Shown here: piece after piece, positions 17,601 through 58,583 of the stretch
Numbering within the stretch: position 1 is the stretch's first letter
How the letters are laid out: each line of letters starts with the position of its first letter
IMG/VR virus record: IMGVR_UViG_3300031760_000003
Location: 1 to 64,000 of that record
Length of the DNA stretch: 64,000 bases
Origin: a virus
Lineage: Duplodnaviria > Caudoviricetes
Strand: one strand, 5' to 3'
The notes under the pieces: generated by a model
What the model saw: the letters and a program-made list of their open reading frames with translations, nothing else
Told to the model about the DNA's origin: nothing
Databases searched by the model: none
Made by a program: the position numbers and the translations under genes

Positions 17601-20600
17601 ACTACCTGGTTATACTGTTCAAGAGAAGCCTTAGTTTGAGCAAGATAATTCTGTATCTGTCCTTCACTATCAAAGATAATTCCGTAACCTTCAAGCTGTT
17701 CTCTTAACTCTGCGGCTTCCTTATGCTGCTCTGCGGCAAGGTCATTATATTTCTGAGCCTGTATTTCAAGTAGCTCATTTTCTGCCTTCAGAGAAGAAAT
17801 TAATTCTGTACGAGATAATTTTTCCTGTTCCTTATCGAGCTTTGATAATGCATGAGTAACTTTCTCAATGGCATTATTAATATCCCAATAACGGTCATAC
17901 TCATCATCGAAATCTTTTTCTTCTTTATCTTTTGTCTTACTACTACCGCTTCCGCTACCGCCAGTTCCTTCGAAATAATCAACGGAACCCATTAAGCGTA
18001 GTTTATTGTATGCGGCTTGGATAGCTTCTTCAGCAGCATCTGCATTAACACCAAAATCTGAAGCACTTAATCCGGCTAAGCCATAAGCATCTTTAGTAAA
18101 CTGGTCAAGTAATTCCGTACCTGCCGCAACCTTACCTGCAGTCTGTAAAGCAACATCGCCAAGGTCAGAATATGTTCTACTTAATTCATCGGTGGCATCA
18201 GCAGCTTCGCCTTCTTTGAGAACATGGAGGTCAGTAATTAAGTCAGCCATTACTTGCTGTCTCATATAAGCCATCTGAACATCCATTAAAGATGAATATG
18301 TCTCATTATTAATCTTTAACTGACCATTTTCAAGCTCAAGACTAGCCACAAAGGCGTTATCCATTTCAACTAACTGTTGAATACTATCTATTGAGAGCTT
18401 ACCATTATCATTATAATCATCAACGACACTCTGTAAAGATGAATATTGAGATTGCAACATATCAATAGTAGAACCAATATTTTTATATTGCTTTTCAATC
18501 TCTGTGTTAGCCTCTGCCGCACTTACCGTACCTGCCTGTAGAGCATCCATCTCTGCCTGGAGTTCATTTGTAACATTAATTACTTTTCGAGTATATTTTT
18601 CAACGGCTCCTTGAGATGTTAAATAAGATTTTATAGGAGTTAAAGAAGAACTCATAGCTTCTGCTAAATCATTTTGGGCTTTTACCAAAAATGCTTGAGT
18701 TTTTTCACTATTATCTCCATTCGCTATTTTCTCTTGAGCATCACGAACATGTTGTTCAGCTTCAGCAATTTTATCTTCATTTTCTCTTAATACATCTGCT
18801 AATGCGCCACCACCGATGGTGTCTAAAAGTTCTATATATTGTTCAACACCAGCACTGCCATCGGTAAGTAACTCTTCAATAGCATTAAGTTGATCATCAG
18901 TTAACTGAGAAAAATCTATTGTAGAATATTTTTCTTCAAATAAATTTTCAGCTATATCAGCAGCCTGTCTAAATGTTTCGATATTGCTTTCATCAATATC
19001 GAACATATCACCAAATTTTATCGAAGTATCTAAATTATCTAATTCATCTTGTAACTCAGCAATAGACTGTTTAGTAATCTCTGCATTTTTACTAGTATTG
19101 ATTAAACCTTCAAGTAAAGCTTGACTTGCTACTCTTGTTTGAGTTTCAAAATCACTATTTTCGAAGGTTTCACGATCCATGATTAAACCAGTTTGAAGTT
19201 TAATCTCAGGTCTTCCGTCAGGGAATAAAGCGTTTATTTCATCTTCTTCAAATTTACCTTTACCATTGGCAGCTGCGAGTGTGGCAGGTATAGTCATAGC
19301 AAATTCAGAATCGGAAACTAAATTAGCAAGATTACCATATTTCTCTAAAAATTCGTCAACATCTTTGCCAGTTTCCTTAAAATAATTCTGGAATCTAGCT
19401 AAAAATACTAACTCAGCCTGGGTATGTTCTGCAAACTCCTCGAAATAACCTTCGGGATCTCCGAAGATGGCTTCCGCAAGATTATAAGCCTGAGTGTTCT
19501 TAAGTCCTTCCCCAGAAAACTGTGAAAGTATCTTATTAACTTCATCCTGTACTTGCTCTCTGCCTTCATCAGTATCAGCATAAGCACCAGAGCTTATAAG
19601 TTGGTTATAAATATCATCCCTAGTTGCAAGGAAATTTTTAGTAGTTACATCATTTGCGGTAAGTGTATTTGCAATATTTTCTTTAGTTGCAGTAATTACC
19701 TCTTGAGATATAGTATTTAAAGAATTTAAACTACCTTCAGCAGCATCAAGATATGAAAGTAATTGAGTTGACATATCTGTATTTGCTGATTGTAAAATTT
19801 CTTTTACAGCGGTAGTATCTTTAGATAATAATTCAACAAAATTATCTAAATTAATTTCATCTACTCCTAATCCTACAGTAGTAATTAAATCTTCAATACC
19901 ATATTCACTACCAAGATCCTTTAATCTAGATATAATATACGATTCATCTGTATTTTCACCTAACGAACCTTTTAATTGATAATTACCGGTCAAAGCATCG
20001 TATGCTCCACCCCAAGCACCACCTGCCGCAGCATATATATCACTGCTAACAGCATTTTTACTGCTTTCAAGAGCTCTTTCTTCTGAAGCTTTATATTCTT
20101 CGCCTCTTTTAGCAGTAGTTTCATCAATAATATTATTTAACTCTTCATAGCTTGCGGAAAGGGCTTTTATAGCGAGTTCTTCTTCGCCATATTGTAAACA
20201 TAACTTGTAAGTTTCATTTCTTAAATCTGTAATTGATCTAACATCTTCTGACTCGTTAAGTTCATCATATGCCTGCTTAAGATTCTTAATATTCTCATAT
20301 TCTTCTTTTTTCTTCTCGGCAAGCTCCGCATCTTTTCTAGCAGCCTCTTCAGCATTCTTAGCATTCTTTTCAAGATAATTATTATAAGCTGCAAGTGCCA
20401 CTTTTGCACCAACAAAAGCAACTGTTGCTATTGCAGCAACGTGTCCTAATACACCAAGACCTGTATATACTTCTTTAAGAGCTTTTAAAAGACCTCCGCC
20501 TTTCTTAACGATAGCATCTTTTAAACCACCGATACCTTTTTTAGAAAGAATCTCAAATCCTTTTAAAAGAGTCTTTTGAGGATTTTTTAAATCTTCAATA

Positions 20601-23398
20601 CTCTTTATAATATCAGTAATACCATTTTCATCTCTTAACTCGTCTAATTTTTTCTGCTCATTATCATTTGTTTTTTGAGTTCTATCTATATCTTTTTGTA
20701 CTTCTTTTTGCTTTTTACTTACTCTTTTAAATTCATCTTCATCTCCGGCATTCCATGCATCTATTCGAGCTTCTTCTAATTCATTATATTGCTCTGTTAA
20801 TTTTTCTATTGCCTTTTTGTTTTCTTCTATAACCTCTAAAGTTATTCGTATATCATCATTTTCTTGTTCTTTTTCTTCTTGGAGATTTTTAAGCCGTTTA
20901 AGTTCTTCATCACCTGCTTCTTTTGCCGCTTTTGTCACTTCTTTTATTGCGGGCGTTATTTTCTTCCAACCCGAACTAACAATAGGAAAATAAAAAACCA
21001 TATTAGTCATAGTTTGAAGTAATTTTTGTCCTATACTTAAATCATTATTACTCCAAATCTGACCAATTTTAGTAATACCGGCAATACCTGTAGCTACTTT
21101 ACTTATACCGGCACCGATGTCCATCCAGCCTTTCGCTACTGCCCTAGCATCCATAGCATCAGCAAAACTTTTTTGAGCTTCATTAAGAGAATTTTGTGCC
21201 CCAATTACGTTATTAACAGCATCTCTAAGTTTTTCTTCTTTTCCTATTTCTTCTTCAATAAGTTTTAAAGCTAATTGATGATTAATAGTATTATCTTCTG
21301 AATTATATGCTCCGCCAACTCTTAATTTTGCTTCAAGACTCTCAAAATTAATTGAACTGCCAAATTTATCACTACTTTTTGATAAAAGATCATCAAAAAC
21401 GCTCTTTGATATAGTATCTCCCTGATCTTTATTATTATCATATAGCTCTTCAATTTTATCACTTAACTCTTTATAAGTATGCTGTAGTTCAGAAGCTCCA
21501 TTAACTAACTTTGTTTGTAATTTTCCAAGATTGTCAAAATTACTAAAATCTTCTTCACTAATGCCTTTAATGACACTATTCAATTTTGTATAATCATCCT
21601 GTAATAACTCTACAGTTTTTTTATCTTCTATTAACTGCGCCCCAGATTTAGTTAATTCATTAAATCGTTTTCTTTCTTCTTCTGTTAAAAGAGACGCATT
21701 TTCATAAATTCTATGATAAAATTCTTCTTGTTCAGCTAAAGCTTTATTAGTCTCACCACCTGCGGCTAATCTTGAAGTATCTCCAACAGTATTCCTTAAT
21801 TCTTGAAGTTTATTAGCTTCTTCTAATTTTAACTGTTCTTGATTAGCCTTATTCATAGCATTTTGGCTAAAAAATGTTGCTAAAGGTCCAGTAGTAGCCC
21901 CGGCTCCCATCGCAAGTGCAGCTGGTATAATTCCTGACAGTCCGCCAAATGATTCTACTAAATGATCTACCACTTTAACTAAGCCAGTAAGCATATCATA
22001 GAATGATTTAACATCATCACTATCAAATAAACTAGAATATAAATCTTCAGATGCAGCTCTTAATTTATTTAAATGAGCCTGCATTGAGTCCATATAGATT
22101 TCATTCTGTTTAGTAAGTGTTCCTTCTGCCGTTGCCGCAGTCTTTAAGTTAGTCTGGAATTTATCCCAGTTACTCATTAATGCGACTAATTGGGTATACT
22201 GTCTTGTACCAGCAACAGTCTGTGCTAAAGCCACTTGAGTATCAGCACTTAAACTTTGCCATTTAGAACCCATTTCATCAAGGATATCATCCATATCCTT
22301 AAGATTTCCGCTAGCATCTTTAATATTAATTCCAACAGCCTCTAATGCCTGAGAATATTTACCTAATGTAGTACCATCATCAAGAGTATCTCCTAATTCG
22401 AGATCCTGGATACGAGCAAATAATGTCTTAAAAGCTGTACCTACGATATCTGCAGACTGACGAGTTTCAGATACTACTGTGGCAAGAGCGGTCGTAGCAT
22501 ACTCATAACTTAAACCAACGGTGTCCGCAACTGCCGCAAACTTTTCAAGACCTTGAGCAATTTCCTCAGAAGAAGATGCGGTTGCCGCACCAAGAGCGGT
22601 AATGGTATCGCCAAAAGATTCAAGTGACTTAGTACCATCATCGAAGTTGTTCCAAATAGCCGTCATGTATTCAGAAACTTCATCCGCGGAAGCTCCTAAG
22701 GCGTTAGCCATTTTAATGGTAACGTTAGTTCTTTCCGCAACCTGCTCATCATCCAAACCTTGCTGGTAGTAAATAAGAGAAGCATCAGTATAATCAGTAG
22801 TAGTTGTACCTAATACCTGTGCTGCATTATTTGCCTGCACCGCAAACTCTTTCATATCTTCCGCAGATTTTTGTGTAACGATACGAATATCATTTAAAGA
22901 CCTATCTAAGTCTTTAATATATCCTATAGCCTGAGAAACTGTTTTAGTAGCGGTATTTAATATAGCATTAAATCCTGTATACATTACAGTATTTTTAAAA
23001 CTGTTAAACAATTTATCAGTAAATTTATTTGTATATTGAACTGCTGTATTTAATTGATATACTTGTGAAGTAACTTTCGCAAAAGCGGCAGTTCCTTCCG
23101 GTCCTAAAGTGGCAAGGTTAGTCTTAATTTGATTTAAGCTCATTCCACTATTTTGAATACTTTTCTGGAAAGTGTTGAAATTAATACCGTTTAAATTTAT
23201 ATCAAAGGCAGAATCTAGTGCATTTTCAAGAACTCTCACTGAAGTAGTAACTTTTTCAACTTCTTCTGCAGAGAAATTCTGTAAAAAGTCTGTGTCAACA
23301 GCGCCTAACTCCTTTAGCGTTCTTTTTAATTCATTTAATCCAGACATATCAACATTTGTTTTAATACCAAGATTAAATGTTAATTGATTATTAGCCAT
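14603..23398 (-). CDS. Tape measure protein (TP901-type core)
   Basis: ~2930 aa, helical; IRIVT...DASLIYYQQG and GTAFKTLFARI core; C-terminal FATGGYTG...LHQKELVLN. Start moved to ATG 23398, which follows AGGAGG. Confidence 0.9.
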   Translation of the reverse strand: MANNQLTFNLGIKTNVDMSGLNELKRTLKELGAVDTDFLQNFSAEEVEKVTTSVRVLENALDSAFDINLNGINFNTFQKSIQNSGMSLNQIKTNLATLGPEGTAAFAKVTSQVYQLNTAVQYTNKFTDKLFNSFKNTVMYTGFNAILNTATKTVSQAIGYIKDLDRSLNDIRIVTQKSAEDMKEFAVQANNAAQVLGTTTTDYTDASLIYYQQGLDDEQVAERTNVTIKMANALGASADEVSEYMTAIWNNFDDGTKSLESFGDTITALGAATASSSEEIAQGLEKFAAVADTVGLSYEYATTALATVVSETRQSADIVGTAFKTLFARIQDLELGDTLDDGTTLGKYSQALEAVGINIKDASGNLKDMDDILDEMGSKWQSLSADTQVALAQTVAGTRQYTQLVALMSNWDKFQTNLKTAATAEGTLTKQNEIYMDSMQAHLNKLRAASEDLYSSLFDSDDVKSFYDMLTGLVKVVDHLVESFGGLSGIIPAALAMGAGATTGPLATFFSQNAMNKANQEQLKLEEANKLQELRNTVGDTSRLAAGGETNKALAEQEEFYHRIYENASLLTEEERKRFNELTKSGAQLIEDKKTVELLQDDYTKLNSVIKGISEEDFSNFDNLGKLQTKLVNGASELQHTYKELSDKIEELYDNNKDQGDTISKSVFDDLLSKSSDKFGSSINFESLEAKLRVGGAYNSEDNTINHQLALKLIEEEIGKEEKLRDAVNNVIGAQNSLNEAQKSFADAMDARAVAKGWMDIGAGISKVATGIAGITKIGQIWSNNDLSIGQKLLQTMTNMVFYFPIVSSGWKKITPAIKEVTKAAKEAGDEELKRLKNLQEEKEQENDDIRITLEVIEENKKAIEKLTEQYNELEEARIDAWNAGDEDEFKRVSKKQKEVQKDIDRTQKTNDNEQKKLDELRDENGITDIIKSIEDLKNPQKTLLKGFEILSKKGIGGLKDAIVKKGGGLLKALKEVYTGLGVLGHVAAIATVAFVGAKVALAAYNNYLEKNAKNAEEAARKDAELAEKKKEEYENIKNLKQAYDELNESEDVRSITDLRNETYKLCLQYGEEELAIKALSASYEELNNIIDETTAKRGEEYKASEERALESSKNAVSSDIYAAAGGAWGGAYDALTGNYQLKGSLGENTDESYIISRLKDLGSEYGIEDLITTVGLGVDEINLDNFVELLSKDTTAVKEILQSANTDMSTQLLSYLDAAEGSLNSLNTISQEVITATKENIANTLTANDVTTKNFLATRDDIYNQLISSGAYADTDEGREQVQDEVNKILSQFSGEGLKNTQAYNLAEAIFGDPEGYFEEFAEHTQAELVFLARFQNYFKETGKDVDEFLEKYGNLANLVSDSEFAMTIPATLAAANGKGKFEEDEINALFPDGRPEIKLQTGLIMDRETFENSDFETQTRVASQALLEGLINTSKNAEITKQSIAELQDELDNLDTSIKFGDMFDIDESNIETFRQAADIAENLFEEKYSTIDFSQLTDDQLNAIEELLTDGSAGVEQYIELLDTIGGGALADVLRENEDKIAEAEQHVRDAQEKIANGDNSEKTQAFLVKAQNDLAEAMSSSLTPIKSYLTSQGAVEKYTRKVINVTNELQAEMDALQAGTVSAAEANTEIEKQYKNIGSTIDMLQSQYSSLQSVVDDYNDNGKLSIDSIQQLVEMDNAFVASLELENGQLKINNETYSSLMDVQMAYMRQQVMADLITDLHVLKEGEAADATDELSRTYSDLGDVALQTAGKVAAGTELLDQFTKDAYGLAGLSASDFGVNADAAEEAIQAAYNKLRLMGSVDYFEGTGGSGSGSSKTKDKEEKDFDDEYDRYWDINNAIEKVTHALSKLDKEQEKLSRTELISSLKAENELLEIQAQKYNDLAAEQHKEAAELREQLEGYGIIFDSEGQIQNYLAQTKASLEQYNQVVADYNAGNISDESFEAYEKDYNTFKEVLDKYDELFYNKMVETQDKLDDITRQIKENNLTGWETELTLKLDTHQADRDWNDFIGKIEDNFKSRWTDFGTQFKTAVFDANSLGGEGGTIDDELKAAKEVMAEIDKMEAGGDSSMFESISQAQDKLKELQDQLVDDAGALFDLYQNGWDNYNSAIDEVIDKFGEVQNSIEAINADLNHQSKIIELLYGQQAYDFLDSLYNAQSKNYLTQLASLRDQNAFYQSQYEKAAAEYGADSDAAQKFKTAWDNTIKDLHAAEEAYLENLAKSYANTVAKAFSDAEKKLMKGSSYNFVSEQWNLAKEAADGVYDDQEKIYQLEKLSLKYQEAIDKASTTKSQQKLQDLYESQVKSLEDRTTLTEYDITLAEKRLAVAQAEADLEDARNNKNALKVTRDTAGNWSYQYVADEGDLDDKQQALLDAQYEAYEYVKQNVSDLKEEMIKLAEDWSTTIADLEAKMIGATEEEKAQYQMMIDWYNDYYATQMNTKADELKAHEVNLAEETNALLATEYMVNTDNYNLMIDSQKRAIDEMAKFAIESAIDVYNSAGEAYDAIVEHGDEAMRETIDYFATAASDITDIWSNNPDSVKNAMLEAMTVCTQAQLDYGEAVREGCIAAGEDYADVEAQIYEDVEATEELQDATSDLVATATSELAEYESYLGFLEDAWYRVKDSVYENGIEMENYIKKLGVARDAAISFVSVLDEAIQKEYEFQRAAAGGTGGSGLDSSSRINIENHQKGRYKVESQFSGNYGIWDTVAGNWVSIAGTGSDGYNSLAQELTKYGFYTQAQYESYKGSGWTDEEILKEIMKDSASVTPSSAHGIKVKAPGGDVIQQYMATKEAAEEYIKKNGLGSEYYAFATGGYTGSWNSNDGKLAMLHQKELVLNADDTANMLEAVSIIRQLSGINSSIQSAIAESIAAALGRISGVSGTGNITNNSGSNNVYNINAEFPAANDVNDIREALLSLPNLAAQRTGLQTI

Positions 23399-23435
23399 CT
23401 CTAACCTCCTTATAATCTCTTTTTGGTCTAAAAAC

Positions 23436-23477
23436 AAAAAATAGACCTCGTTATTTAATGTAAATAACGAGGTCTAT
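23436..23477 (-). terminator. Intrinsic terminator upstream of the tape measure gene
   Basis: ATAGACCTCGTTATTTA/TAAATAACGAGGTCTAT stem plus T-tract. Confidence 0.7.
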
Positions 23478-35987: not shown

Positions 35988-37739
35988 TTATTTTCCAAAA
36001 AACATCATATCCGCAATATTATGAGTTCTTCGTCTCTTCTTTTTATTTTCCTCTTCCTTAATGTAGTATAACGCATATTCAAAAGCAGAAAATTTATCTT
36101 TAGGGATACCTCTATTATTCTGTTTTAGAATTATATTAACACCATCATTGGATTCAACAAGATTTAACATTTGTTCCTTTAGAATGCTAGTCTGTTGATA
36201 TGGCATTAAATATTCGTTACGTTCATCCGGAGTCATATTTTGACCTACTTTTGTCTGCATCAATTTAGCTTTTGCGGTTTGTTCATCTATCAATAACTTT
36301 ATCTTGCCGCTACTTAATTGGGTCTGTACATACGAATGCGCTTCAGTATTGATAGGTGCATTAGCTTTAATTAAAAACATAGCGTTCTTTTCCGCACCCT
36401 CGATTCTTAACTGTTTATAATCTTGGTCAGCACCTTCATAAGTTCCGCCTTCAACACCAAAAGCAGGAAGTTCAGTACCATCAATAGGATCGATTTGAGC
36501 TTTTGTCATAAAGTCAACAAATCCAACTCCAAGTCCGTTAGCATCGATAACAACTCGTCTAGCTTTAAACTGATAATAAAGTTTCTTTATATAAATAGCT
36601 TGTTCTTCAAAGTGGGTCGCCGCAAAAGAATAGAAATTAACAAGAGACTTAATAGAATCTCCTTGCGGTTGCGGCGTTACTTTTATAACTGCCACTTCCG
36701 AGTTACAATCTTTTCTACCTACATCGACACCGAGTATATAATAAGCACTTTTACTTGATTTTCCACTAAACTCTTTTTCAGACAAGAGCAAAACTCTATG
36801 TCTATCAAAACTAGCACTGGAGAAATAAGCATTATCCTGGTCTCCACTCCAAACGCTACCATATTCTCGGTCGAAAGATGCTTCATTATAAGTACCAGAT
36901 AACTTCATTTCATTAACCATGTCCTTTTTAACGGCACCTTCTAGAATAGCTAATTCATAGTCTCCGCCAAAAACAAAATATTTATCTGGTTCAAAAATTG
37001 ATGCAATTAACAACTCAATTTGTTTATCGTAAGCGAAAGAATTTTTCCATCCCGCGGACGTTATATATATTTGAGATTGGTTAATGACTTCATCGGGATC
37101 AGTTGTTGTATCCGGTAAATTCCTATCAATGTTAGTTGTAGGAATAATAATCTCGTTAAGAGACTTCTCTTCTACAAGAATAACCTCTTCTATCAGTCCG
37201 CCAGTACGTCTTTGACCACGGGAAGATTCCCTTGCCGCCAGTATATCAAGAACAGAGCCATTTTTAAATATATATTTTAAGTTATCTTTTGATGTTTTAG
37301 ATACACCTCTATCAAAGTTTATTTCACGACCAAGTGCGGGAATTAACTTACAGATTTCTTCCACTTTTGACATAGTAATTAATGCTGCCTGCTCTTTACC
37401 ACCGGTAGTAACAAATAGCTTCGCGCCAGGGAAAAGTATAGCTTTCAGCATAAGAGACATTATAGCCAAAAACGATTTACTGAAACCTCGAGTAAAAGTA
37501 GCATAGACATATTTATGTCTCATGCATGCCCGCAAGAATATTCTCTGAGTATCCCTAAATTTAAAAGGACAATCATCTCCTTTTATATCATCAACAAAGA
37601 TATCTGGATATTCTCTATAATAAGCAATTAGTTTTCTTAAATCTGGCATCACCGCCTCTAATCGCTCTTGAGAGATTTCATCCTTTTTTAAATCACTAAT
37701 ATGCGAAGCAGACATATCTAACAAATTTTGTAAACTCAT
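35988..37739 (-). CDS. terL: Terminase large subunit
   Basis: Walker A TRGFSKS, RGQRR, Walker B GLIEE, motif III ITSAG, nuclease LGVDVGR, IDANGLG, KDKFSA. Confidence 0.92.
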   Translation of the reverse strand: MSLQNLLDMSASHISDLKKDEISQERLEAVMPDLRKLIAYYREYPDIFVDDIKGDDCPFKFRDTQRIFLRACMRHKYVYATFTRGFSKSFLAIMSLMLKAILFPGAKLFVTTGGKEQAALITMSKVEEICKLIPALGREINFDRGVSKTSKDNLKYIFKNGSVLDILAARESSRGQRRTGGLIEEVILVEEKSLNEIIIPTTNIDRNLPDTTTDPDEVINQSQIYITSAGWKNSFAYDKQIELLIASIFEPDKYFVFGGDYELAILEGAVKKDMVNEMKLSGTYNEASFDREYGSVWSGDQDNAYFSSASFDRHRVLLLSEKEFSGKSSKSAYYILGVDVGRKDCNSEVAVIKVTPQPQGDSIKSLVNFYSFAATHFEEQAIYIKKLYYQFKARRVVIDANGLGVGFVDFMTKAQIDPIDGTELPAFGVEGGTYEGADQDYKQLRIEGAEKNAMFLIKANAPINTEAHSYVQTQLSSGKIKLLIDEQTAKAKLMQTKVGQNMTPDERNEYLMPYQQTSILKEQMLNLVESNDGVNIILKQNNRGIPKDKFSAFEYALYYIKEEENKKKRRRTHNIADMMFFGK

Positions 37740-43674: not shown

Positions 43675-43954
43675 CGGCAAGGGGGCTTAAAGCCCCTGCC
43701 CGCAAATCATCTTACCTCCTCCCTATACCTTAAGGCACCCTATTTGCAAGGGTGCCTTACTTTTTGGGCGTGTCGTCATGGGTCGCGACGACACGTGTTT
43801 TTCATTATACCATACTCTGAATATTTTGTCAATAGTAAAAGTGCATAAAAATTCATCTCTTCGGATCCTGAAATTTGTGCAACTTTTTTTTTAAAAAGGT
43901 ATTGACTAATGGATGCGAGTATGGTATATTATAATTACAGAAAGGGAAAAGAAA

Positions 43955-44074
43955 GAAAGTGGATAACCTTTCAAAGAGATAGTTAGCAATGAAAAGTGAA
44001 AAGTAGGGATTTCTAAATTAAAGAATTTAGAGGTTTTGAAAAATAACTTTTTACCTGACGGAAACTTTCACCGA
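43955..44074 (+). ncRNA. Structured ncRNA, copy A (homologue at 51540)
   Basis: Own promoter, no ORF, stems covary with copy B. Confidence 0.7.
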
Positions 44075-44162
44075 AACTTAAAAAATTTTTAAAAAAGTAG
44101 TTGACAAATATTAACAGATATGTTAAGATATAATCAGAAAGAGGAAAGAGAGGTAAACAGTT

Positions 44163-44396
44163 ATGATGAACAAAGAATATTTTGAAAACTTATTACAGGA
44201 ATTAGTTGCTTGTGGAATAATCTACATCAAGGAATACAAAGGCACTGTTAATGTAACTTTTGAAGATGTGGATTTTGTTGATGAAAGAGCCGAAGAATTA
44301 GAAAATTTCTTCTATGAAATGTGTGAAGGAGATTTTTATCTCTCAGGCGAAATTTTTGGTAAAGATTACGTAGTAGGTTTTGGAGATATGGAATAA
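44163..44396 (+). CDS. Small acidic hypothetical protein
   Basis: Promoter; GAGAGGT RBS. Confidence 0.7.
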   Translation: MMNKEYFENLLQELVACGIIYIKEYKGTVNVTFEDVDFVDERAEELENFFYEMCEGDFYLSGEIFGKDYVVGFGDME

Positions 44397-44477
44397 TAAA
44401 AATCTTCAAAAACCTATTGACAAATACTCACAAGTATGATATAGTATAATTAACAAAAGGAAAGAGAGGTAATGAGT

Positions 44478-44597
44478 ATGAAGAGAGTAAGAGTAGAGTT
44501 TTGGTGTGAAGCATTAGAGTTAGCAAAGAAAACTATTGATGCAGTAATTTATCAAGATAGTTATGTTGGGTATGTAGTAGAATACGTTCCCGCTTAA
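44478..44597 (+). CDS. 39-aa protein, paralogue of 42343..42462
   Basis: Paralogy, promoter, RBS. Confidence 0.75.
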   Translation: MKRVRVEFWCEALELAKKTIDAVIYQDSYVGYVVEYVPA

Positions 44598-44681
44598 CTA
44601 AAAAAATTTAAAAAAGTATTGACAACCTTTAAATTATCTGATATAATTTAATCAAGATAAAAGAAAGAGAGGTAAACGCTT

Positions 44682-44846
44682 ATGAAGAACTACACAATTA
44701 GATTTTACACAACTGTTGATACAATAATCGAAATGAACATTGAAGCAAAGAACATGCTTGTTGCAGAAAACATTGCTTATGATAACTTTGCTAATGGTGG
44801 TTATGAAGGCTCTATTGTAAGAGTTGAGGCTTCTGGAAGAATTTAA
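44682..44846 (+). CDS. Small hypothetical protein (54 aa)
   Basis: Promoter; GAGAGGT RBS. Confidence 0.65.
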   Translation: MKNYTIRFYTTVDTIIEMNIEAKNMLVAENIAYDNFANGGYEGSIVRVEASGRI

Positions 44847-45054
44847 AAAATTCTTCCAAAACCACTTGACAAAAATTATTTTTCTGGCTGGCGCGCTTAC
44901 CTTCGGCGCGCGCTGAATTTTACATTATATCACAGCACCGATATTTTGTCAATAGTAAAAGTGTACAAAAATTTACCTCTTCCGATCCCGAAATTTGTGC
45001 AACTTTTTTGTATTTACCTATTGACTTATTCTGTAGTTATGGTATACTTGTATT

Positions 45055-45340
45055 ATCAAAGAGATGAGGAATAAGGACCGAGCCTACAGGGTGGGCGAGA
45101 ATTGTGGTGACTAAGTCCTAGGGGTGTCACCGCACTCGCGAAACTAACAGAGATACCCATTAAATCGGTGGTGCCTATCACGAGGCAGTTTCTCCTAAAA
45201 GATATCGTGACAGTGACCCTTAACTTTTCCACCACTAAGGCAATGGAAAATGACCTATGTTGTGCTATCGAGCAAGGTCGGGCAGAAAATTGCATACCGG
45301 TAGCAAGTTGGAGAGGGGGTTTTAATCCCTCTCCTTTTTC
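45055..45340 (+). ncRNA. Candidate ~285-nt structured ncRNA
   Basis: Promoter at 45021, elevated GC, multiple stems, terminator, no RBS-supported ORF. Confidence 0.6.
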
Positions 45341-45564
45341 TTTTGAGCGTCGCGTCAACTCAAGAGACGCGACGTATTTTCAATTATGTTACGCATAACA
45401 TATTTTTGTCAATAGGCAATTTGAACAAAAATGCAATGGAAAAGATCCTGAAATTTGTGCATATTTTTTTTTAAATTTTTCTAAAAAGTGTTGACACGCA
45501 CCCTATAAAATGGTAGTATATATATGTAAGGAAGAGATAACAACCAACTTGGAGGTAAAAAGAT

Positions 45565-45873
45565 ATGATAAACATTAGAACACTTAGAAACATTAAGAAC
45601 AACGGTGGTTTAACACTTAAGAACGGCAAGGCTATCACTTATAAAACAGGTTGGCAGGTTGCCACTGAAGGTGTACAGACAACCGATATCAACGAAGTCC
45701 GCGGACTTATTAAAAAATACAATGGTAACTGTGGGCTGTGGCTTGAAAATGGCGTATGGTATGTTGATAAAAGCCATAGAGTAAACACAAAAAAGGAAGC
45801 ACTCCGAATCGGTAAAGAGTGCAACCAAATATCAGTTTTAAAATGGTCTGATATGTCCCTTGCCTACTGCTAA
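45565..45873 (+). CDS. Hypothetical protein
   Basis: GGAGGT RBS; promoter at 45491. Confidence 0.75.
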   Translation: MINIRTLRNIKNNGGLTLKNGKAITYKTGWQVATEGVQTTDINEVRGLIKKYNGNCGLWLENGVWYVDKSHRVNTKKEALRIGKECNQISVLKWSDMSLAYC

Positions 45874-45980
45874 AAAGTAGGCAAGAAAAAATAAAAAAAA
45901 TTTAAAAAGTGCTTGACAAAATAATCGGTATATGGTAATATATAATCATAAGGAAAACAAAGAAAGGTTGGTATAGAAAT

Positions 45981-46124
45981 ATGTTTATAGTTAAAGGTTT
46001 TAAGAACGGCGTTATGGATACAATTCACTGCTTTGGAATGTCTGAGGCATACAGAGCATATCACAAAATGATTAACTCAGGGTATGTCGGAATCGAGATT
46101 TCCGAGTCCGATATGCTCGTTTAA
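45981..46124 (+). CDS. Small hypothetical protein (47 aa)
   Basis: Promoter, RBS, terminator. Confidence 0.6.
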   Translation: MFIVKGFKNGVMDTIHCFGMSEAYRAYHKMINSGYVGIEISESDMLV

Positions 46125-46470
46125 CCTCCTACCTTACCTACGGGGCGCCAATTCGGCGCCCTCTTTTGTTTTGGACGGGCAGCGATGAACCGCCGCTGCC
46201 CGAATTTTTAATTATATCACCCTTTGCGATTTTTGTCAATAGGAAAATTGCACAAAATTTTTAACAATTTCATCCTAAAATTCTATGTATTTTTTCTTGA
46301 TGATCTCGGTGTGGATTTGTCAATAGTAAAAATGCACAAAAATTTACAGCAAAAAACTTTATCTTTGTGCAATTTTCTTTAAATTTCCCCTTGAAATCTA
46401 TTTTTGCTTTTGATATAATGTATTTACAAGGTAAGGAAAACAATTCAGTTGTGAAAGGTAGGTGCTTATT

Positions 46471-46641
46471 ATGGAGATTTTAGTAAAGGTTAACAACACA
46501 CCCGATGGATTCACTCCTAAGTTTGTAGTAGCAAGAGTTTGTGATGGCGAACTCTGGTACTGGGGCAACTTTGAGGATGAGGCTACTGCTTATGAGGTCG
46601 CAGCAAAGCTCGACGCAGTTGTGATTCCCGCCAACAAGTAA
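46471..46641 (+). CDS. Small hypothetical protein, paralogue of 42856..43032
   Basis: Paralogy, promoter, RBS. Confidence 0.8.
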   Translation: MEILVKVNNTPDGFTPKFVVARVCDGELWYWGNFEDEATAYEVAAKLDAVVIPANK

Positions 46642-46768
46642 TCACTCAAGAGGGGGTGCAAACCCCCCTCGAGTAAAAAATTTTTTTTAAAAAGTAGTTG
46701 ACTTTTTGTCCGTATGGGTGTATACTATGTATATAGTTAAGGATAAGTATTTTTAGGAGGTATTGCTT

Positions 46769-46963
46769 ATGTTTTATGTAATGTATGGACAGTATGGAGA
46801 TTTCGTTAAGGCTTTCGATACAGAGGAAGAAGCTCTTGCTTACATCGAGAGTAAATCTTGCCCTGATGATTATTGGGTTTGCACTGATGATGAAGAACCC
46901 GATGACATCGATTCGGATTTCGGTTTTGACTCTTACGAGGGTTGCTACACCTACGATTGCTAG
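46769..46963 (+). CDS. Small, very acidic hypothetical protein
   Basis: AGGAGGT RBS; Asp/Glu-rich C-terminus ending GCYTYDC. Confidence 0.7.
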   Translation: MFYVMYGQYGDFVKAFDTEEEALAYIESKSCPDDYWVCTDDEEPDDIDSDFGFDSYEGCYTYDC

Positions 46964-47027
46964 GTGTGGCACAAAAAATTTTAAAAAAGGTATTGACATT
47001 CCCTTCGGGGTATGATAATATAATAAT

Positions 47028-47228
47028 GTAAGGAGCGGGAGGGCGACGCGAAGAGCGGGTCACAAGTAGACCGTGTAAGACCTTTTAAACGCAACGAACA
47101 CCCTGAAAGCAATCTCGGGTAGGAAGCCGAGAAGCCCTTACAAAACAAAAGGCTTGAACTCCAGAGTGTGCCTTAAACACGAGAAGAAAGTGAGTAAAAA
47201 AGGAAAGACTCCGGAAGGAGTCTTTTTT
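47028..47228 (+). ncRNA. Candidate ~200-nt structured ncRNA
   Basis: Promoter at 46993, GTAAGG/CCTTAC closing stem, terminator, no ORF. Confidence 0.55.
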
Positions 47229-47439
47229 CTTTGGGCGTGGCGTCAACTCAAGAGACGCCACGAATTTAGCATTATACCATGGTCCGCATATTTTGTCAAG
47301 AGTAAATATGCACAAAGATCTGGTCGGTATACTCCTAAAATTTGTGCATCTTTTTTGCTTCTACCTCTTGCAATGTTTTAAAATTTATGTTATTATATCT
47401 ATACAAGGTAAGGAAAAACATCAAAGCGAGGTACTTAAT

Positions 47440-47667
47440 ATGGCATACTACAGATTTTGCAACATTATCATTTCAAGAAACGACTTAATTTCTATTGTCT
47501 GCACTGAAATTTTTGATAACGGCAGACGTGATGTACTCACAAAAGAGTTACAAAAAATCAAAACACCCGAGTTAATCAGACGTAAGGTACAGGCTCGTGC
47601 TTATAAGTTAGCCTTAAAGCTCGGTCTTGACGTTGACTATGTAGGATATTATGAAAAGGAGGCATAA
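47440..47667 (+). CDS. Small hypothetical protein
   Basis: ATG 47440 after GAGGT. Confidence 0.7.
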   Translation: MAYYRFCNIIISRNDLISIVCTEIFDNGRRDVLTKELQKIKTPELIRRKVQARAYKLALKLGLDVDYVGYYEKEA

Positions 47668-47669
47668 TT

Positions 47670-47822
47670 ATGGGAGATTTATTTTTAGCAATACAAGAGA
47701 AAGGGTATAATCCTGAGTTGGCAATATGTACACCCGAACCAAATAATGATAGATATATCATAGTTGCTATCCGTGGTCGATATGTCGGAAAATATGATAC
47801 TTTTAAGAGAGAATGGGCTTGA
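47670..47822 (+). CDS. Small hypothetical protein (50 aa)
   Basis: AGGAGG RBS; stop codon inside TTGACA. Confidence 0.65.
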   Translation: MGDLFLAIQEKGYNPELAICTPEPNNDRYIIVAIRGRYVGKYDTFKREWA

Positions 47823-47872
47823 CATTCTCTCTTGAATATGGTAAGATATAATTATCAAAAGAAAGGTAGGTA

Positions 47873-48067
47873 ATGATTATGAGAACACTTTGTTATGCAC
47901 TTGATTGGGAAAATACGGGAGTTTGTCTTGCACTAACAGTGCTTGAAAGTCTTTTCCCTTGTTTCGTATCTTATAACGATATCGATGAGGATACATTCGA
48001 GGTATCTATCACATGTCGCCAGGAAGATGCGGCGGCTATCGAGAGAAGGTTGGCGGCTCATATGTAA
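47873..48067 (+). CDS. Small hypothetical protein
   Basis: Promoter and RBS. Confidence 0.65.
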   Translation: MIMRTLCYALDWENTGVCLALTVLESLFPCFVSYNDIDEDTFEVSITCRQEDAAAIERRLAAHM

Positions 48068-48302
48068 GCCGCCATCTCCCAAGGCTTTGAACGTCGCGTA
48101 ATCTACCCGCCACGCGACGTATTTTGCGATTATACCATATTCGGTAAAATTTGTCAATAGGCAATTTGTACAAAATTTTTAGCATAGGAATCCCGAAATT
48201 TGTGCATATTTTTTCTATAAAAATGTTGACATATTTTTACTATGTGGTATACTAATAATGTAAGGAAGATAAACAACCAAATCGGAAAGGTAGGTAAGAA
48301 TT

Positions 48303-48575
48303 ATGGTAGTAATGTCAGATGTAGCAACAACACTTAGAGAGTCAAGAGAGGAAACTATCGAAGAGAGAGAGTATCAGGTTCAGGATGCTGTAGATAGCAT
48401 CGAATATGACCTCATTCAGTTAGAGGAAGATATAGCAATTCTCTTGGATAACTATGGCGATTATGTGGATGATATGACAGAAGAAGAGGAAGATAACTTC
48501 TGTGCAGACATTCACGAAAAGGTAGTATTCCTTGAGAAAGTAAAGGAACTCCTCAGAAAAAGACCTATCAGATAG
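48303..48575 (+). CDS. Highly acidic helical protein
   Basis: Promoter and RBS; about one third Asp/Glu. Confidence 0.75.
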   Translation: MVVMSDVATTLRESREETIEEREYQVQDAVDSIEYDLIQLEEDIAILLDNYGDYVDDMTEEEEDNFCADIHEKVVFLEKVKELLRKRPIR

Positions 48576-48635
48576 TTACAAAATAATAGAGGTGGCGGCA
48601 AGACACACCTGCCGCCGCCAAGAAAGGTAAAGGAT

Positions 48636-48833
48636 ATGAAAAAATTTACAGTAAGAATTTACGCAAGGAGTTTAGAGATATACGAGTATAGCGATATTTA
48701 TGCTTCAAACTACGTAAACGCAAAACGGGAGGCATCTACAAGATATCTGGAAAGTCACTCTTGGGAGAGCATCTTTAAGGTGACTATAATATGTCCCACG
48801 GGTGCCATAGTCACATATGACTGTCCATTCTAA
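48636..48833 (+). CDS. Small hypothetical protein
   Basis: GAAAGGT RBS. Confidence 0.65.
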   Translation: MKKFTVRIYARSLEIYEYSDIYASNYVNAKREASTRYLESHSWESIFKVTIICPTGAIVTYDCPF

Positions 48834-49017
48834 AAAGGTGTCGCCAATAGCTTTGGCGGCACGTGATTTGCTGACACGTGCCGCATTTTTTGTCAATAGG
48901 TATTTTCAACAAATTTTCATTTGAATTTTTGTGTAATTTGTCTATTGTATTTTTCCGTCAATTTGCTATAATGTATTTACAAGGTAAGGAAAACAAGCAA
49001 AACAGAAAGAGAGGTAA

Positions 49018-49212
49018 ATGCTTATGATGACAATAGAAGAAATGGTAATGTACGACCAGCTCGTAGATATGGGTATCGCAACAGCAGACGAACTTAACCT
49101 TGCAAGAAATCTTGTATCAGGCTCATGGGAGGATGTATTGACAAGCGTACTTTATATCAGAACAGGATATCGCTCAATAGAACAGATGTTTGAAGATGAG
49201 GAAGAGGACTAA
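49018..49212 (+). CDS. Small acidic hypothetical protein, related to 49928..50137
   Basis: MT(I/V)E(E/D)MV-x-Y...GI...W...G(Y/F) pattern shared. Confidence 0.7.
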   Translation: MLMMTIEEMVMYDQLVDMGIATADELNLARNLVSGSWEDVLTSVLYIRTGYRSIEQMFEDEEED

Positions 49213-49254
49213 AGTCCTCTTCCACAAAAATAATAAGAAAGTGAGGTGTCGCCT

Positions 49255-49434
49255 ATGTATAGAAAAGTCACAGTAGCAAGATATATTAATGGTAGAGATT
49301 CTATCAGATATAACAAAAAAATCAGAGTTTTAGATTATGACACCCACACAAATAAAGGCTCATGGGTTGATAATGAAAAAGCCTATATCAAAGCAATAAA
49401 AGTCACACCTAAATATATTTTTATTTTTATTTAA
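49255..49434 (+). CDS. Small basic hypothetical protein
   Basis: GAGGTG RBS. Confidence 0.6.
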   Translation: MYRKVTVARYINGRDSIRYNKKIRVLDYDTHTNKGSWVDNEKAYIKAIKVTPKYIFIFI

Positions 49435-49503
49435 AAATCCCTATTGACTTTTATTAAAAATAATGTTACAATGGTATTATCAAAAGAAAGAGAGGTAACT
49501 AAA

Positions 49504-49704
49504 ATGGAAAATTTTGTATCAGTAGTGCTTGGATCTATCGCAGAGGACATTAAGGTGTCAAAAGAGGATGTAATAGCAGATTTCGTCAATTTCAACAAGG
49601 CTATCGACGAGAAGATGGCGGAAGGCTACTCTGAGGATGAAGCAACAGAGATGGTTGCATCCTCATGGAACTTTGCTTGGTGGGATACTCAGGCAGAGGG
49701 ATAA
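49504..49704 (+). CDS. Small acidic hypothetical protein
   Basis: ATG 49504 after GAGAGGT. Confidence 0.7.
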   Translation: MENFVSVVLGSIAEDIKVSKEDVIADFVNFNKAIDEKMAEGYSEDEATEMVASSWNFAWWDTQAEG

Positions 49705-49927
49705 GCAAGTACGCGACGCTCATTAAGTTGGGCGTCGCGTTAGCACTTGTAACGCGACGAATTTTCAATTATACCACACCCTGTAAAATTTGTCAATAGG
49801 CAAAATGCACAAAAATGTGACTGTTGCAATCCCGAAATTTGTGTAACTTTTTTTCTAAAACCCCTTGCAAAGTTCTAAAATGTATGGTATTATATCTTTA
49901 CAAGGTAAGGAAAGCGAGGTATTAAGT

Positions 49928-50137
49928 ATGACACAGAGAACAGATATGACAGTAGAGGATATGGTTAACTATGAGTGGATAGTTGAAAGTGGCATTTGCA
50001 AAGCCTCTATACTTAATGCAATAGCCGTTGCTATGAAGAATAGCACATGGGCAAAAGTATTCGACGCCGTAATCTTTTACTATAAAGGTTTTAAAACCTT
50101 TGACGAGTATTATATGTATGTTATGGAAAATGAATAA
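49928..50137 (+). CDS. Small hypothetical protein
   Basis: ATG 49928 after GAGGT. Confidence 0.7.
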   Translation: MTQRTDMTVEDMVNYEWIVESGICKASILNAIAVAMKNSTWAKVFDAVIFYYKGFKTFDEYYMYVMENE

Positions 50138-50149
50138 GAGGTGGTAATT

Positions 50150-50329
50150 ATGAGAGAAATTAAGTTTGATATCCGTAAAACAATGACAAAAAAGGCATTT
50201 AAGGAAATGCAGAAAAATAGCCGTAACCTTAATGGATTCAATACCGGCACAAGAGATATGAAAACGGCAAAAAGTCCGTCAAGGTCTACACGCAAAGCCG
50301 AAACGAGAAAAATAGCAAAAGAGTATTGA
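50150..50329 (+). CDS. Small basic hypothetical protein
   Basis: GAGGTG RBS; stop codon inside TTGACA. Confidence 0.65.
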   Translation: MREIKFDIRKTMTKKAFKEMQKNSRNLNGFNTGTRDMKTAKSPSRSTRKAETRKIAKEY

Positions 50330-50386
50330 CAAAAACTGCGGCAAGGCGTATAATATAAATATAGTAAAGAAAGGTAGGTAACTAAT

Positions 50387-50602
50387 ATGAGCGATGTAGT
50401 AATTATGAGAGAAGAGATTTTAAGAGATATGAATAACTCAATACTTGCAACAGGAGATGAGGATATCTTCGATGTATGGTTTTCAGTAGGTGTCCCCGAT
50501 ATGTGTGACGATGAAACATACGCTGAAATAGCCGAGGATGAAGAGGAATATAACAGAATTAAAAAAGTTTTCAATAGACTTATGAGAGAAAGTGAGGAGT
50601 AA
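50387..50602 (+). CDS. Small acidic hypothetical protein
   Basis: Promoter and RBS; GDEDIFDVW...GVPD. Confidence 0.75.
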   Translation: MSDVVIMREEILRDMNNSILATGDEDIFDVWFSVGVPDMCDDETYAEIAEDEEEYNRIKKVFNRLMRESEE

Positions 50603-50605
50603 AAA

Positions 50606-50809
50606 ATGACAATTTTAATGGTACTTGGAATAATTATTTTAGCTTTAGGGATGGTAGCCTTAGAGGGTTGGGTAGTAATGATACTTTGGAATTGGCTTAT
50701 GCCTATGGTTTTTGGCTTACCAACTGTTACCTATTGGGTTGCATTAGCACTTATGTTTTTATTTTCTATATTAACAGGTGGATTAGTAAGAGTTAAAGAA
50801 AGAAAGTGA
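50606..50809 (+). CDS. Small membrane protein
   Basis: Hydrophobic; LWNWLMP-x-VFGLP-x-VTYW-x-A motif common in phage membrane ORFs. Confidence 0.75.
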   Translation: MTILMVLGIIILALGMVALEGWVVMILWNWLMPMVFGLPTVTYWVALALMFLFSILTGGLVRVKERK

Positions 50810-50819
50810 GGTATAAAAA

Positions 50820-50960
50820 ATGTTAACAATCGTTTGTCTTGTACTTGCAATTATGTATCTTGCGGAGTTTAATGTAGGAACAGCCCTTGCTATTTGTACT
50901 ATTATCAAGGCACTCTGTGAAGTATTTGTAGCAATTATAAAAATTATTCGAAATGATTAA
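50820..50960 (+). CDS. 46-aa hydrophobic protein
   Basis: GAGGT RBS; coupled to neighbours. Confidence 0.55.
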   Translation: MLTIVCLVLAIMYLAEFNVGTALAICTIIKALCEVFVAIIKIIRND

Positions 50961-50972
50961 GGAGAAAAAATT

Positions 50973-51368
50973 ATGACGAAACTTGATAAAGCAAAAAAGG
51001 TTATAGAGCATTATTACACCGAGGCAAGTTGTGGTATCTTTAATACCCATAACCTTGTTAATGACCCTATGGAAACTTTATATGAGGAGTCAGATGTTAT
51101 CATTGATATCTGTCGCCCGTATGAGTATTTTGAGGTCTTTGGTCTGTCTGAGGAAGAGTTTTCTGAACTCGAGAAATTCTATATGGATTTAGAAACATCG
51201 GTTTATAGTCCCCATAATCCTCAAAGATTGGATGAGGATATAAGAGAAAAGTTAACTGGGTTAGAGGAATCTATTGAAATTCGTAATTATAATAAGCCCT
51301 ATACTATGAAAGAGAAATATAATCTCTGCGTTAAATTAAAGAGAATCCTTGATATGTTTATGGATTAA
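50973..51368 (+). CDS. Hypothetical protein
   Basis: AAGGAG RBS. Confidence 0.75.
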   Translation: MTKLDKAKKVIEHYYTEASCGIFNTHNLVNDPMETLYEESDVIIDICRPYEYFEVFGLSEEEFSELEKFYMDLETSVYSPHNPQRLDEDIREKLTGLEESIEIRNYNKPYTMKEKYNLCVKLKRILDMFMD

Positions 51369-51539
51369 ATTTATAAAATGGCTCGGCATTTCTATTCGCC
51401 GAGCCGTGCGCATTTCACACGGCTCGTATTTTTGTCAAGATGGCAATTTGTATAAAAATAAAACTGATATTTTGTGCAATATTCCCTATTGTAATTATCC
51501 CATAATGTGTTATACTATAATTACAGAAAGGAAAGAAAT

Positions 51540-51652
51540 GCAAGTGGATAACCTTTCAAAGAGAAAAATGGCACTGATAATCATAAAAGTAGGGGTTGTT
51601 AAGACTTTAGCAATTTTGAAAAAAGATTATTACCCATTGGAAACTTGCCCGA
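51540..51652 (+). ncRNA. Structured ncRNA, copy B (homologue at 43955)
   Basis: Shares AAGTGGATAACCTTTCAAAGAGA, AAAAGTAGGG, TTTGAAAAA and GGAAACTT with copy A; compensatory stem changes. Confidence 0.7.
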
Positions 51653-51678
51653 CAATTTTGAAAGAGAGGAAATAAAAA

Positions 51679-51873
51679 ATGAACGACGGAAACAAATATA
51701 TAAGACCACTTACAATTAATATACCTCCCGATGTAGAGTATTTTCTCAAAGAGTGTGACGATGAGGGGTTAAATTTAACTGAAATCATTGATGCAATACT
51801 CAATGACCGAACTGAAATAAGTATAGGTGGAATCAATGCCGTTATCGCCTATGAATCAGTAACACATTTTTAA
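51679..51873 (+). CDS. Small hypothetical protein
   Basis: GAGAGG RBS; related to 51896..52084. Confidence 0.65.
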   Translation: MNDGNKYIRPLTINIPPDVEYFLKECDDEGLNLTEIIDAILNDRTEISIGGINAVIAYESVTHF

Positions 51874-51895
51874 TTAAAAGAAAGGAAATAAGAAA

Positions 51896-52084
51896 ATGGA
51901 ATTTATCAAGCCTACAACTATTATAGTACCTAAGAATTTTGTAAAATTTCTTAAGGAACTCGATGAATTTGCCAATGATACATTTACCAATGATACAGGA
52001 GAAGATATGATCAGTTTATTAAACGATATTGAAACTGAAGAAACTGAACACAATGAGTATATCAAATTTGAATATGAGGAGTAA
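51896..52084 (+). CDS. Small acidic hypothetical protein
   Basis: RBS; followed by a terminator; related to the 60047 and 60265 ORFs. Confidence 0.7.
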   Translation: MEFIKPTTIIVPKNFVKFLKELDEFANDTFTNDTGEDMISLLNDIETEETEHNEYIKFEYEE

Positions 52085-52286
52085 TTAAAAGAGGGGTTAA
52101 CCCCTCTTTTTTTTGTTCGGCGGCTCGCTTGCATTCGAAGCGAGCCGCATTTTGTCAAGTAGTAATATTCGATAAATTTTATAACTGAAATTTAGTAATA
52201 TTTACTACTTGCATTTATCCCTTATTTTGCTATAATTATACTTGTAAGGAACAAGAAAACAAGTTAAGAAAGGTTGGTAAAAAGAA

Positions 52287-56078: not shown

Positions 56079-56152
56079 GTGCCTGTAACTCAATTGGCTA
56101 GAGTAACCGGCTTTTAACCGGTAAGTTGTGGGTTCAAGTCCCACTAGGCACA
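56079..56152 (+). tRNA. tRNA-Lys(TTT)
   Basis: Acceptor GTGCCTG/TAGGCAC, D arm, anticodon arm ACCGG-CTTTTAA-CCGGT, T arm GTGGG-TTCAAGT-CCCAC; followed by CTA rather than CCA. Confidence 0.9.
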
Positions 56153-56530
56153 CTAGGAGTTTTACTGTAAAGGGTTTCTTCCATGCGTAAATAAAAACTA
56201 TTACACGGGGCTTTTTGGTAGCACACAGTATTTTCCTCGAAAGTTAGAAAGAACTACCCCTTGGTGAAAAGGGCGAAACACTGAGATGAGTTGCACATCG
56301 CTCTCACGGTAGCCAAAATAACTAGAGCAGTTTTAGCAAGAGGTTTCTGCTTATCAAAAAACCTCACGGTAGTTTTTTACGGAGTGACAACCATTTTTCT
56401 ACCTTAAAAGAAAAAATTGTTGTTAAAAGGGTTTTTAGTGTTTAGAATAGTTGTCGATTTTTCCCCTTGCAAAACACATCAACTATCAAACGCGTTGAAA
56501 GGCATCTCTGACGAGAGATGTCTTTTTTTT
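56153..56530 (+). ncRNA. Candidate structured RNA(s) co-transcribed with the tRNA
   Basis: ORF-free; hairpins, an H-type pseudoknot at 56325-56365 and a terminal terminator. Confidence 0.45.
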
Positions 56531-58374: not shown

Positions 58375-58460
58375 TAAGAGGTGGCGGAAAGGTAAACGCC
58401 GGATGTGACTCGTTCTCTGAAAAGAGTGTAGAATTGCAGGTTCGAATCCTGTCCTCTTAA
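58375..58460 (+). ncRNA. tRNA-like RNA with aberrant anticodon arm
   Basis: Acceptor TAAGAGG/CCTCTTA, D arm TGGCGGAAAGGTAAACGC, T arm GCAGG-TTCGAAT-CCTGT; own promoter at 58339. Confidence 0.7.
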
Positions 58461-58583
58461 CTCTAAATCAATTCATACTTACCTTCCTTTCAAAAGGCAC
58501 TGTTCAGTTTAAGACTTGGGCAGTGCTTTTTGCTTGACAAATTTTAAAAATTATGTTATAATATTATTAGAAAGTGAGAAAGT

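Follow-up and report, generated by a model that had tools for sequence, protein, structure and literature searches.

A covarying structured RNA with its own promoter in large Firmicutes phages of ruminant gut samples

The window analysed here, 64,000 nucleotides (nt) forming the first 64 kb of a 165,479-bp virus record (IMG/VR record IMGVR_UViG_3300031760_000003, Caudoviricetes; rated complete by CheckV), contains two copies of a structured RNA on its plus strand, copy A at 43955-44069 (115 nt) and copy B at 51540-51648 (109 nt), at the positions where an original prediction, based on the letters of the DNA alone, had placed them. The RNA belongs to no described family, its novelty being one of family and not of mechanism, and it is carried by large Firmicutes phages of ruminant gut samples within a module that is a self-contained mobile unit, independent of its neighbours. 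We tentatively favour the view that it is an autonomous, stabilised early RNA that would bind a protein or another partner through its invariant loops.

The fold is supported by extensive covariation. In the pairwise alignment of A and B all 26 pairs are standard and eight of them carry compensatory double changes, so that the four stems named originally are all real; in controls with the partners slid by 1 to 3 columns, 35-54% of the cells were paired and at most two pairs were doubly changed. A small additional hairpin of 3 bp, P1a, lies beyond these four. Helix P1 (43955-43960/44064-44069 in copy A, 51540-51545/51643-51648 in copy B) closes a three-way junction which holds P1a (43968-43976; 51553-51561) and a long arm that consists of P2 (43982-43986/44055-44059; 51567-51571/51634-51638), an internal loop, P3 (43992-43997/44046-44051; 51577-51582/51625-51630), an A-rich loop with the strands AGUA and GAA, and P4 (44006-44037; 51592-51617). 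Folds of the single sequences return P2 to P4 with z-scores of -2.8 (A) and -1.6 (B), and RNAalifold, run on an alignment of five sequences, recovered P1 to P4 independently with 18 covarying pairs. Over 14 distinct versions of the RNA, 93.3% of the cells of 29 pairs are paired and 22 pairs have changed on both sides, as compared with 33-53% of paired cells in slid controls and no equally high value in 500 shuffles, in an alignment that was fitted to the model and therefore favours the structure. P4 starts with three G-U pairs in almost all versions, which means that the fold exists only on the plus strand, the one that is transcribed from the promoter.

The long invariant blocks of the original prediction hold for A and B alone, and the core that persists across the 14 versions is smaller. 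It comprises G.GAU, GAG and GGAAAC in the junction, C..U and AC in the internal loop between P2 and P3, AAAAGUA facing UGAA in the loop between P3 and P4, and also the C-G of P1a and GG; in the two copies, AAAAGUA lies at 43999-44005 and 51585-51591, GAA at 44038-44040 and 51618-51620, and the GGAA of the junction at 44060-44063 and 51639-51642. The AGUA and GAA strands flanking the apical stem are invariant, and by their sequence they are consistent with a loop-E (bulged-G) module beside P4, as had been proposed. The length of the A-rich strand is not conserved, and since a single A is left in lineage C, no 'codon' is conserved in it. Invariant loops on covarying stems, as read from the alignment, would point to the recognition of a specific partner.

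A pseudoknot had also been suggested, between UUUCAAA and UUUGAAA. All 7 bp are intact in A, B, F, G and H. Lineages C, D, E, I, J and K, by contrast, have an altered 5' partner (AAUCGGU, ACUCAGU, ACUCGGU or CUUCAGU) opposite a constant 3' partner, and we rejected the pseudoknot. The flanking bases covary instead as the local hairpin P1a (CUU-UCA-AAG versus CAC-UCR-GUG; 88% of the cells paired, two of the three pairs doubly changed). A contact of 3 bp between the P1a loop (UCA, UCG or UUA) and the invariant UGA is possible on sequence grounds.

Relatives of the RNA were found through its covariance model and through pattern searches. A search of the window for a 19-nt block, GGATAACCTTTCAAAGAGA, finds it exactly twice even when three mismatches are allowed, against 0.02 times in shuffles, and a covariance model built from A and B found these two copies and no others in the whole genome, in agreement with the final model of 16 rows (R3), which scores copy A with 128 bits and copy B with 101 bits. 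The RNA is therefore two-copy in this genome, as predicted, and further paralogues occur on related contigs. A scan of relatives with 58-71% identical terminases yielded one diverged copy, C, with 47 bits, and a pattern scan of metagenome contigs yielded D and E. Nine further distinct versions, often two per contig, came from contigs that encode the cluster of near-identical proteins, present on many short contigs, to which a 54-aa open reading frame (ORF) at 44682-44846 belongs. Altogether there are 14 distinct sequences, 12 of them besides A and B, which fall into about six lineages (A-like, B, C, D/E/K, F/G/H and I/J), so that homologues exist and covary strongly. Large Firmicute phages have the terminases nearest to that of this phage (Geobacillus virus E3, 44%; Enterococcus phages, 40%; SPbeta-like phages, 32%), and the metatranscriptome runs in which pieces of the region occur bear the labels sheep gut and bovine gut.

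Other searches remained empty. Neither blastn nor megablast of the element and the surrounding 20 kb gave a match in 50,697 phage records, and no family member was present in Geobacillus virus E3, Enterococcus phage H1, Phass-1, Alicyclobacillus phage KKP_3916 or MT836163, three of which have a named host. Among weaker candidates, the match in Enterococcus phage H1 and those in four contigs (L148, L149, L150 and L152) lack the invariant loops, that in contig L151 shares the 5' block only, and that in G009, G011 and G012 lies within coding sequence. The loose pattern AAAGTAGGG..TTTGAAAA was found at more than 100 loci of viral contigs, all of them chance matches as judged by the covariance model, and tighter patterns returned only the sister phage described below and G010. 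None of 15 pattern matches in representative bacterial and archaeal genomes was real, and neither a prophage copy nor a host was found there.

Comparison with described RNAs points to an unrecognised structured non-coding RNA, as had been predicted. At gathering scores the 4227 models of Rfam 15 detected a single tRNA in the whole window, and around both copies, at E-values up to 10, they returned noise only (SNORD75 with 18 bits versus 50, and SAM-II with 13 bits on the wrong strand). The original prediction had seen a likeness to T-box stem I and helix P2 of the lysine riboswitch, and the loop-E-type internal loop adjoining an A-rich stretch does recall both; as a relationship, however, the likeness does not hold, since neither model (RF00230, RF00168) scores even at E = 10. 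Furthermore, the RNA has no terminator, its A-rich strand varies in length, it has one three-way junction and not a five-way junction, and it shows no K-turn, distal T-loop platform or antiterminator. The fold is aptamer-like, and we found no conserved sequestering of a ribosome-binding site (RBS) and no linked gene family that would mark a riboswitch in general. Hammerhead, twister, twister-sister, pistol, hatchet and HDV-like ribozymes gave no Rfam match up to the same E-value, and as we read them the junction strands GGAUAMC, AGAWA and GGAA would fit the hammerhead core neither in order nor in sequence. A tRNA-like nature was dismissed, as ARAGORN finds only a tRNA-Lys and a tRNA-Val, elsewhere in the window. 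A leader peptide or other coding function was likewise rejected: no frame is conserved, copy B alone is crossed by an open one, versions A, C, D and E lack a start or are interrupted by stops in every frame, and substitutions are paired across the stems, which argues against protein coding.

All versions share a common upstream unit, in which the motif TTTGTGCAA precedes a sigma-A-type promoter, with its -35 box and a TG-extended double -10 box, and a purine-rich leader; both the -10 region and the initial bases of the transcript are conserved in 14 of 14. Copy A thus has its own promoter and no ORF, as originally described: TTTGTGCAA at 43874-43882 is followed by the promoter at 43902-43935 (-35 TTGACT, a 17-nt spacer with TG, and overlapping -10 boxes TATATT and TATAAT) and by the leader ACAGAAAGGGAAAAGAAA at 43937-43954, which resembles an RBS and has no start codon. 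The corresponding elements of copy B, as read from the sequence, are TTTGTGCAA at 51471-51479, a promoter at 51489-51521 (-35 TTGTAA, TG-extended -10 TATACT overlapping TATAAT) and a purine-rich leader at 51523-51539, behind which an AUG opens a frame of 46 codons that is not conserved elsewhere. In the whole window TTTGTGCAA has 11 sites (e.g., 42005, 43874, 44994, 46364, 51471 and 56639) against 0.9 expected, each upstream of a promoter, and it is possibly a regulator site by which one class of promoters is marked.

On the other side of the RNA, 12 of the 14 versions are followed after 20-40 nt by an A/T-rich upstream element and a second consensus promoter, and then by an RBS and a small ORF; in copy A the second promoter lies at 44101-44129 and the first small ORF (77 aa) at 44163-44396. 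In B and C the RNA runs directly into an RBS, in copy B that of a 64-aa ORF at 51679-51873. The orientation of the RNA is always that of the next ORFs, which are mostly unrelated to one another and gave no match to a Pfam or PHROG family. A sister phage (contig L004, terminase 98% identical) has an identical copy B and lacks a 1-kb cassette, 43890-44915, that contains copy A and three small ORFs; the break (L004:3580-3674) lies within repeated promoter units, which suggests that cassettes are shuffled through recombination between these units. On several contigs two diverged paralogues are 0.6-1.5 kb apart.

Every version has kept ACAGARAGGRAA at the predicted start of the transcript, and in 12 of 14 no start codon follows this RBS-like purine run near the 5' end (the exceptions, B and C, open short or unconserved frames). 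RBS-like and polypurine sequences that act as 5' stabilisers of transcripts are established in Bacillus, one of them coming from phage SP82, and such Bacillus elements were reportedly described by Agaisse & Lereclus (1996) and Hue et al. (1995), two papers cited in PMC3997798. The leader has their hallmarks, namely 5'-terminal RBS-like purines without a start codon in the setting of a Firmicute phage. The STAB-SD and polypurine stabilisers (cryIIIA; SP82 early RNA) are, in contrast, short linear elements, and the leader of this RNA fronts a large conserved fold with which it is possibly paired. It can form a helix, P0, with a stretch reading CCUUUC or CCCACUC (CCUUUC at 43967-43972 in copy A), for which 84% of the cells are paired and two pairs covary, with the central pair broken in 6 of 11 sequences. 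P0 and P1a are mutually exclusive, and the third base of P1a covaries with its partners in both helices, a pattern drawn from 3-4 lineages; in minimum-energy folds that include the leader, P0 is chosen in 11 of the 14 versions. A likeness of GGAUAACCUUUC to the 3' end of 16S rRNA was dropped, as D and E (GGAUACCCACUC) and I and J (GGAUUUUCCCUUC) diverge. In a relative with a 71% identical terminase, GGATAACCTTTAAAAGAGAGG (L151:1507-1540) matches the 5' block of the RNA at 18 of 19 positions; it is the genuine ribosome-binding region of an ORF, with the rest of the fold absent, and judging from this match it may be a remnant or the source of the 5' part of the RNA.

A stabilised RNA that binds a partner is favoured because the RNA behaves as a unit (it is mobile, has paralogues and is separated from the next genes by their own promoter), because its loops are invariant and because its leader is RBS-like. 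The unit would be transcribed early in infection, and its leader would shield the transcript from 5'-to-3' decay, either in the manner of the STAB-SD and polypurine stabilisers or through a 5' helix formed with CCUUUC. The folded RNA would then act alone, apart from the downstream gene, and bind a protein or another macromolecule through its invariant loops, possibly as a decoy, sponge or scaffold in host take-over. Several points weigh against this. No terminator follows the RNA in any of the 14 versions, so that it is always co-transcribed with downstream genes and a cis-acting 5' element fits at least equally well; the RNA is absent from two relatives that are 89% complete, and it is therefore dispensable; and the leader may be paired in P0, which would hide it from ribosomes. 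In the two metatranscriptome runs with parts of 43700-52200 no contig covers either copy, which is uninformative as contigs cannot show absence. We consider it rather doubtful that the RNA represents a new functional class, be it a sponge or decoy that disarms a host protein or signalling molecule or a ligand-sensing P0/P1a switch that controls its own stability.

It is the absence of a terminator that keeps cis roles alive, namely a stabiliser or processing site, an antiterminator and a riboswitch. The first of these, a 5' element of a long transcript which stabilises or processes the mRNA or recruits a factor, and which would give two mRNA forms per cassette, is in our view unlikely and yet accords with several observations: the RNA is always co-oriented with the next ORFs, it leads straight into an RBS in B and C, and the purine leader or P0 looks like a 5' stabiliser. 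RNase III processing sites are present in early transcripts of T7 and SP82, and by analogy the long irregular arm of P2, P3 and P4 may resemble them. However, a plain stabiliser or processing site needs no 35 or so invariant bases in loops and junction, the downstream genes are unrelated, and in 12 of the 14 versions the downstream genes have a strong promoter of their own.

A ligand-binding aptamer, either a riboswitch that toggles between P0 and P1a to expose or hide the RBS-like leader or a sponge for a small molecule, appears less probable again. The closing stem, the invariant junction and the covarying stems do resemble the build of an aptamer, and the exclusive helices P0 and P1a with their shared covarying column, together with the preference for P0 in minimum-energy folds, would suit a switch. 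Neither a conserved expression platform, whether a terminator or a sequestered RBS, nor a link to any gene family was found, though, and the covariation of P0 and P1a comes from the few lineages mentioned above.

An antiterminator after the model of putL and putR of phage HK022, in which the nascent RNA binds its polymerase and lets it pass the many terminators in the early region, seems to us quite improbable. The position would be right, with at least two copies per genome that each begin 15-23 nt after an early transcript start, and so would the pattern of change, with stems that differ between copies by compensation and loops that are kept. The HK022 sites, too, are encoded by a phage, lie in two copies per genome past early promoters, show compensatory changes and have no dedicated terminator. 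The likeness is one of position only; they consist of two stem-loops in about 70 nt and not of a three-way junction with a long arm in about 110 nt. Terminators to be ignored would be abundant, as the early region contains 34 terminator-like sites against 8 expected. Yet beyond 40 kb the window holds dozens of small plus-strand ORFs, almost each with its own consensus promoter (TTGACA-17-TATAAT), so that read-through is not needed, and the cassettes are bounded by terminators plus converging promoters, borders that look built for insulation. Near-complete relatives without the RNA and the lack of an Rfam match argue in the same direction.

Least probable of all is an RNA that cleaves itself, as a new class of ribozyme, or one that assembles into an RNA-only multimer. 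A ROOL RNA is present in the same genome, other phage-borne orphan RNAs form RNA-only assemblies, and the invariant junction would be in keeping with a core for catalysis or docking. Against this, none of the known ribozyme models scores even at E = 10, and no conserved palindromic loop suggests kissing contacts.

According to two preprints (bioRxiv 10.1101/2024.12.08.627333; 10.64898/2026.07.01.735769), ROOL, GOLLD and the short manA motif form such assemblies. With these three the RNA shares its carriage by gut or rumen Firmicutes phages, an orphan function and strong covariation. It differs from them in having no similarity of sequence or model to them, in being much smaller than ROOL and GOLLD, in its several paralogues, and in its location in an early promoter-rich region and not beside tRNAs. 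Highly expressed, protein-sequestering small RNAs of the CsrB/RsmZ and 6S type are comparable in that they have multiple paralogues and act through conserved single-stranded motifs rather than pairing seeds; the RNA has three conserved GGA motifs (in the leader, in GGAUA and in GGAAAC). Unlike in these, there are just 2-3 GGA sites, located in the junction and not in hairpin loops, and there is no open-promoter bubble of the 6S kind; words of the GGAUA type are not enriched in the window.

To our knowledge, a role has been assigned to very few of the structured RNAs that phages encode. Should this RNA bind a host factor or a ligand, phage take-over or counter-defence would gain an RNA-based tool; should it act on polymerase or decay, Firmicute phages would gain a new cis element. 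Its clean covariation and compact size make it suited to structural work, and the module of promoter plus RNA could be transferred to Bacillus. The early region as a whole resembles a host-take-over region, and consensus promoters, antisense hairpin units, a 285-nt candidate RNA and ROOL together suggest an unusually RNA-rich phage lineage.

The ROOL RNA of this genome is full-length and lies outside the window (G000 126759-127354, equal to L227:6760-7355, plus strand; RF03087, 261.6 bits versus 99.1 for the gathering score), and a tRNA precedes it by about 6.7 kb. The candidate RNA of about 285 nt is delimited by a promoter and a terminator (45021-45340, plus strand), without a convincing ORF or Rfam match. 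Contigs from RNA runs of two metatranscriptome studies span exactly 45070-45303 of it (depth 92 in one of them), and it is 97% identical in the sister phage, compared with about 91% for its flanks, with a fold z-score of merely -0.8. The antisense units, at about 16 sites between 40166 and 63832 on the minus strand, consist of TTTTTGTGCA..CTA, then TTGACAAAAT..TGGTATAAT, and then AAATTCGG with a GC-rich hairpin; they stand directly after the terminators of plus-strand cassettes and point back into these cassettes.

Both tRNA calls of the window are placed behind consensus promoters of their own, a tRNA-Lys(UUU) at 56079-56153 and a tRNA-Val(GAC) at 58375-58461, which is unusually long at 87 nt, both on the plus strand. 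Up to about 40 kb the structural genes lie on the minus strand; they comprise the large terminase (35988-37739) and two neighbouring giant ORFs of 2658 and 2944 aa at 6516-14492 and 14603-23437.

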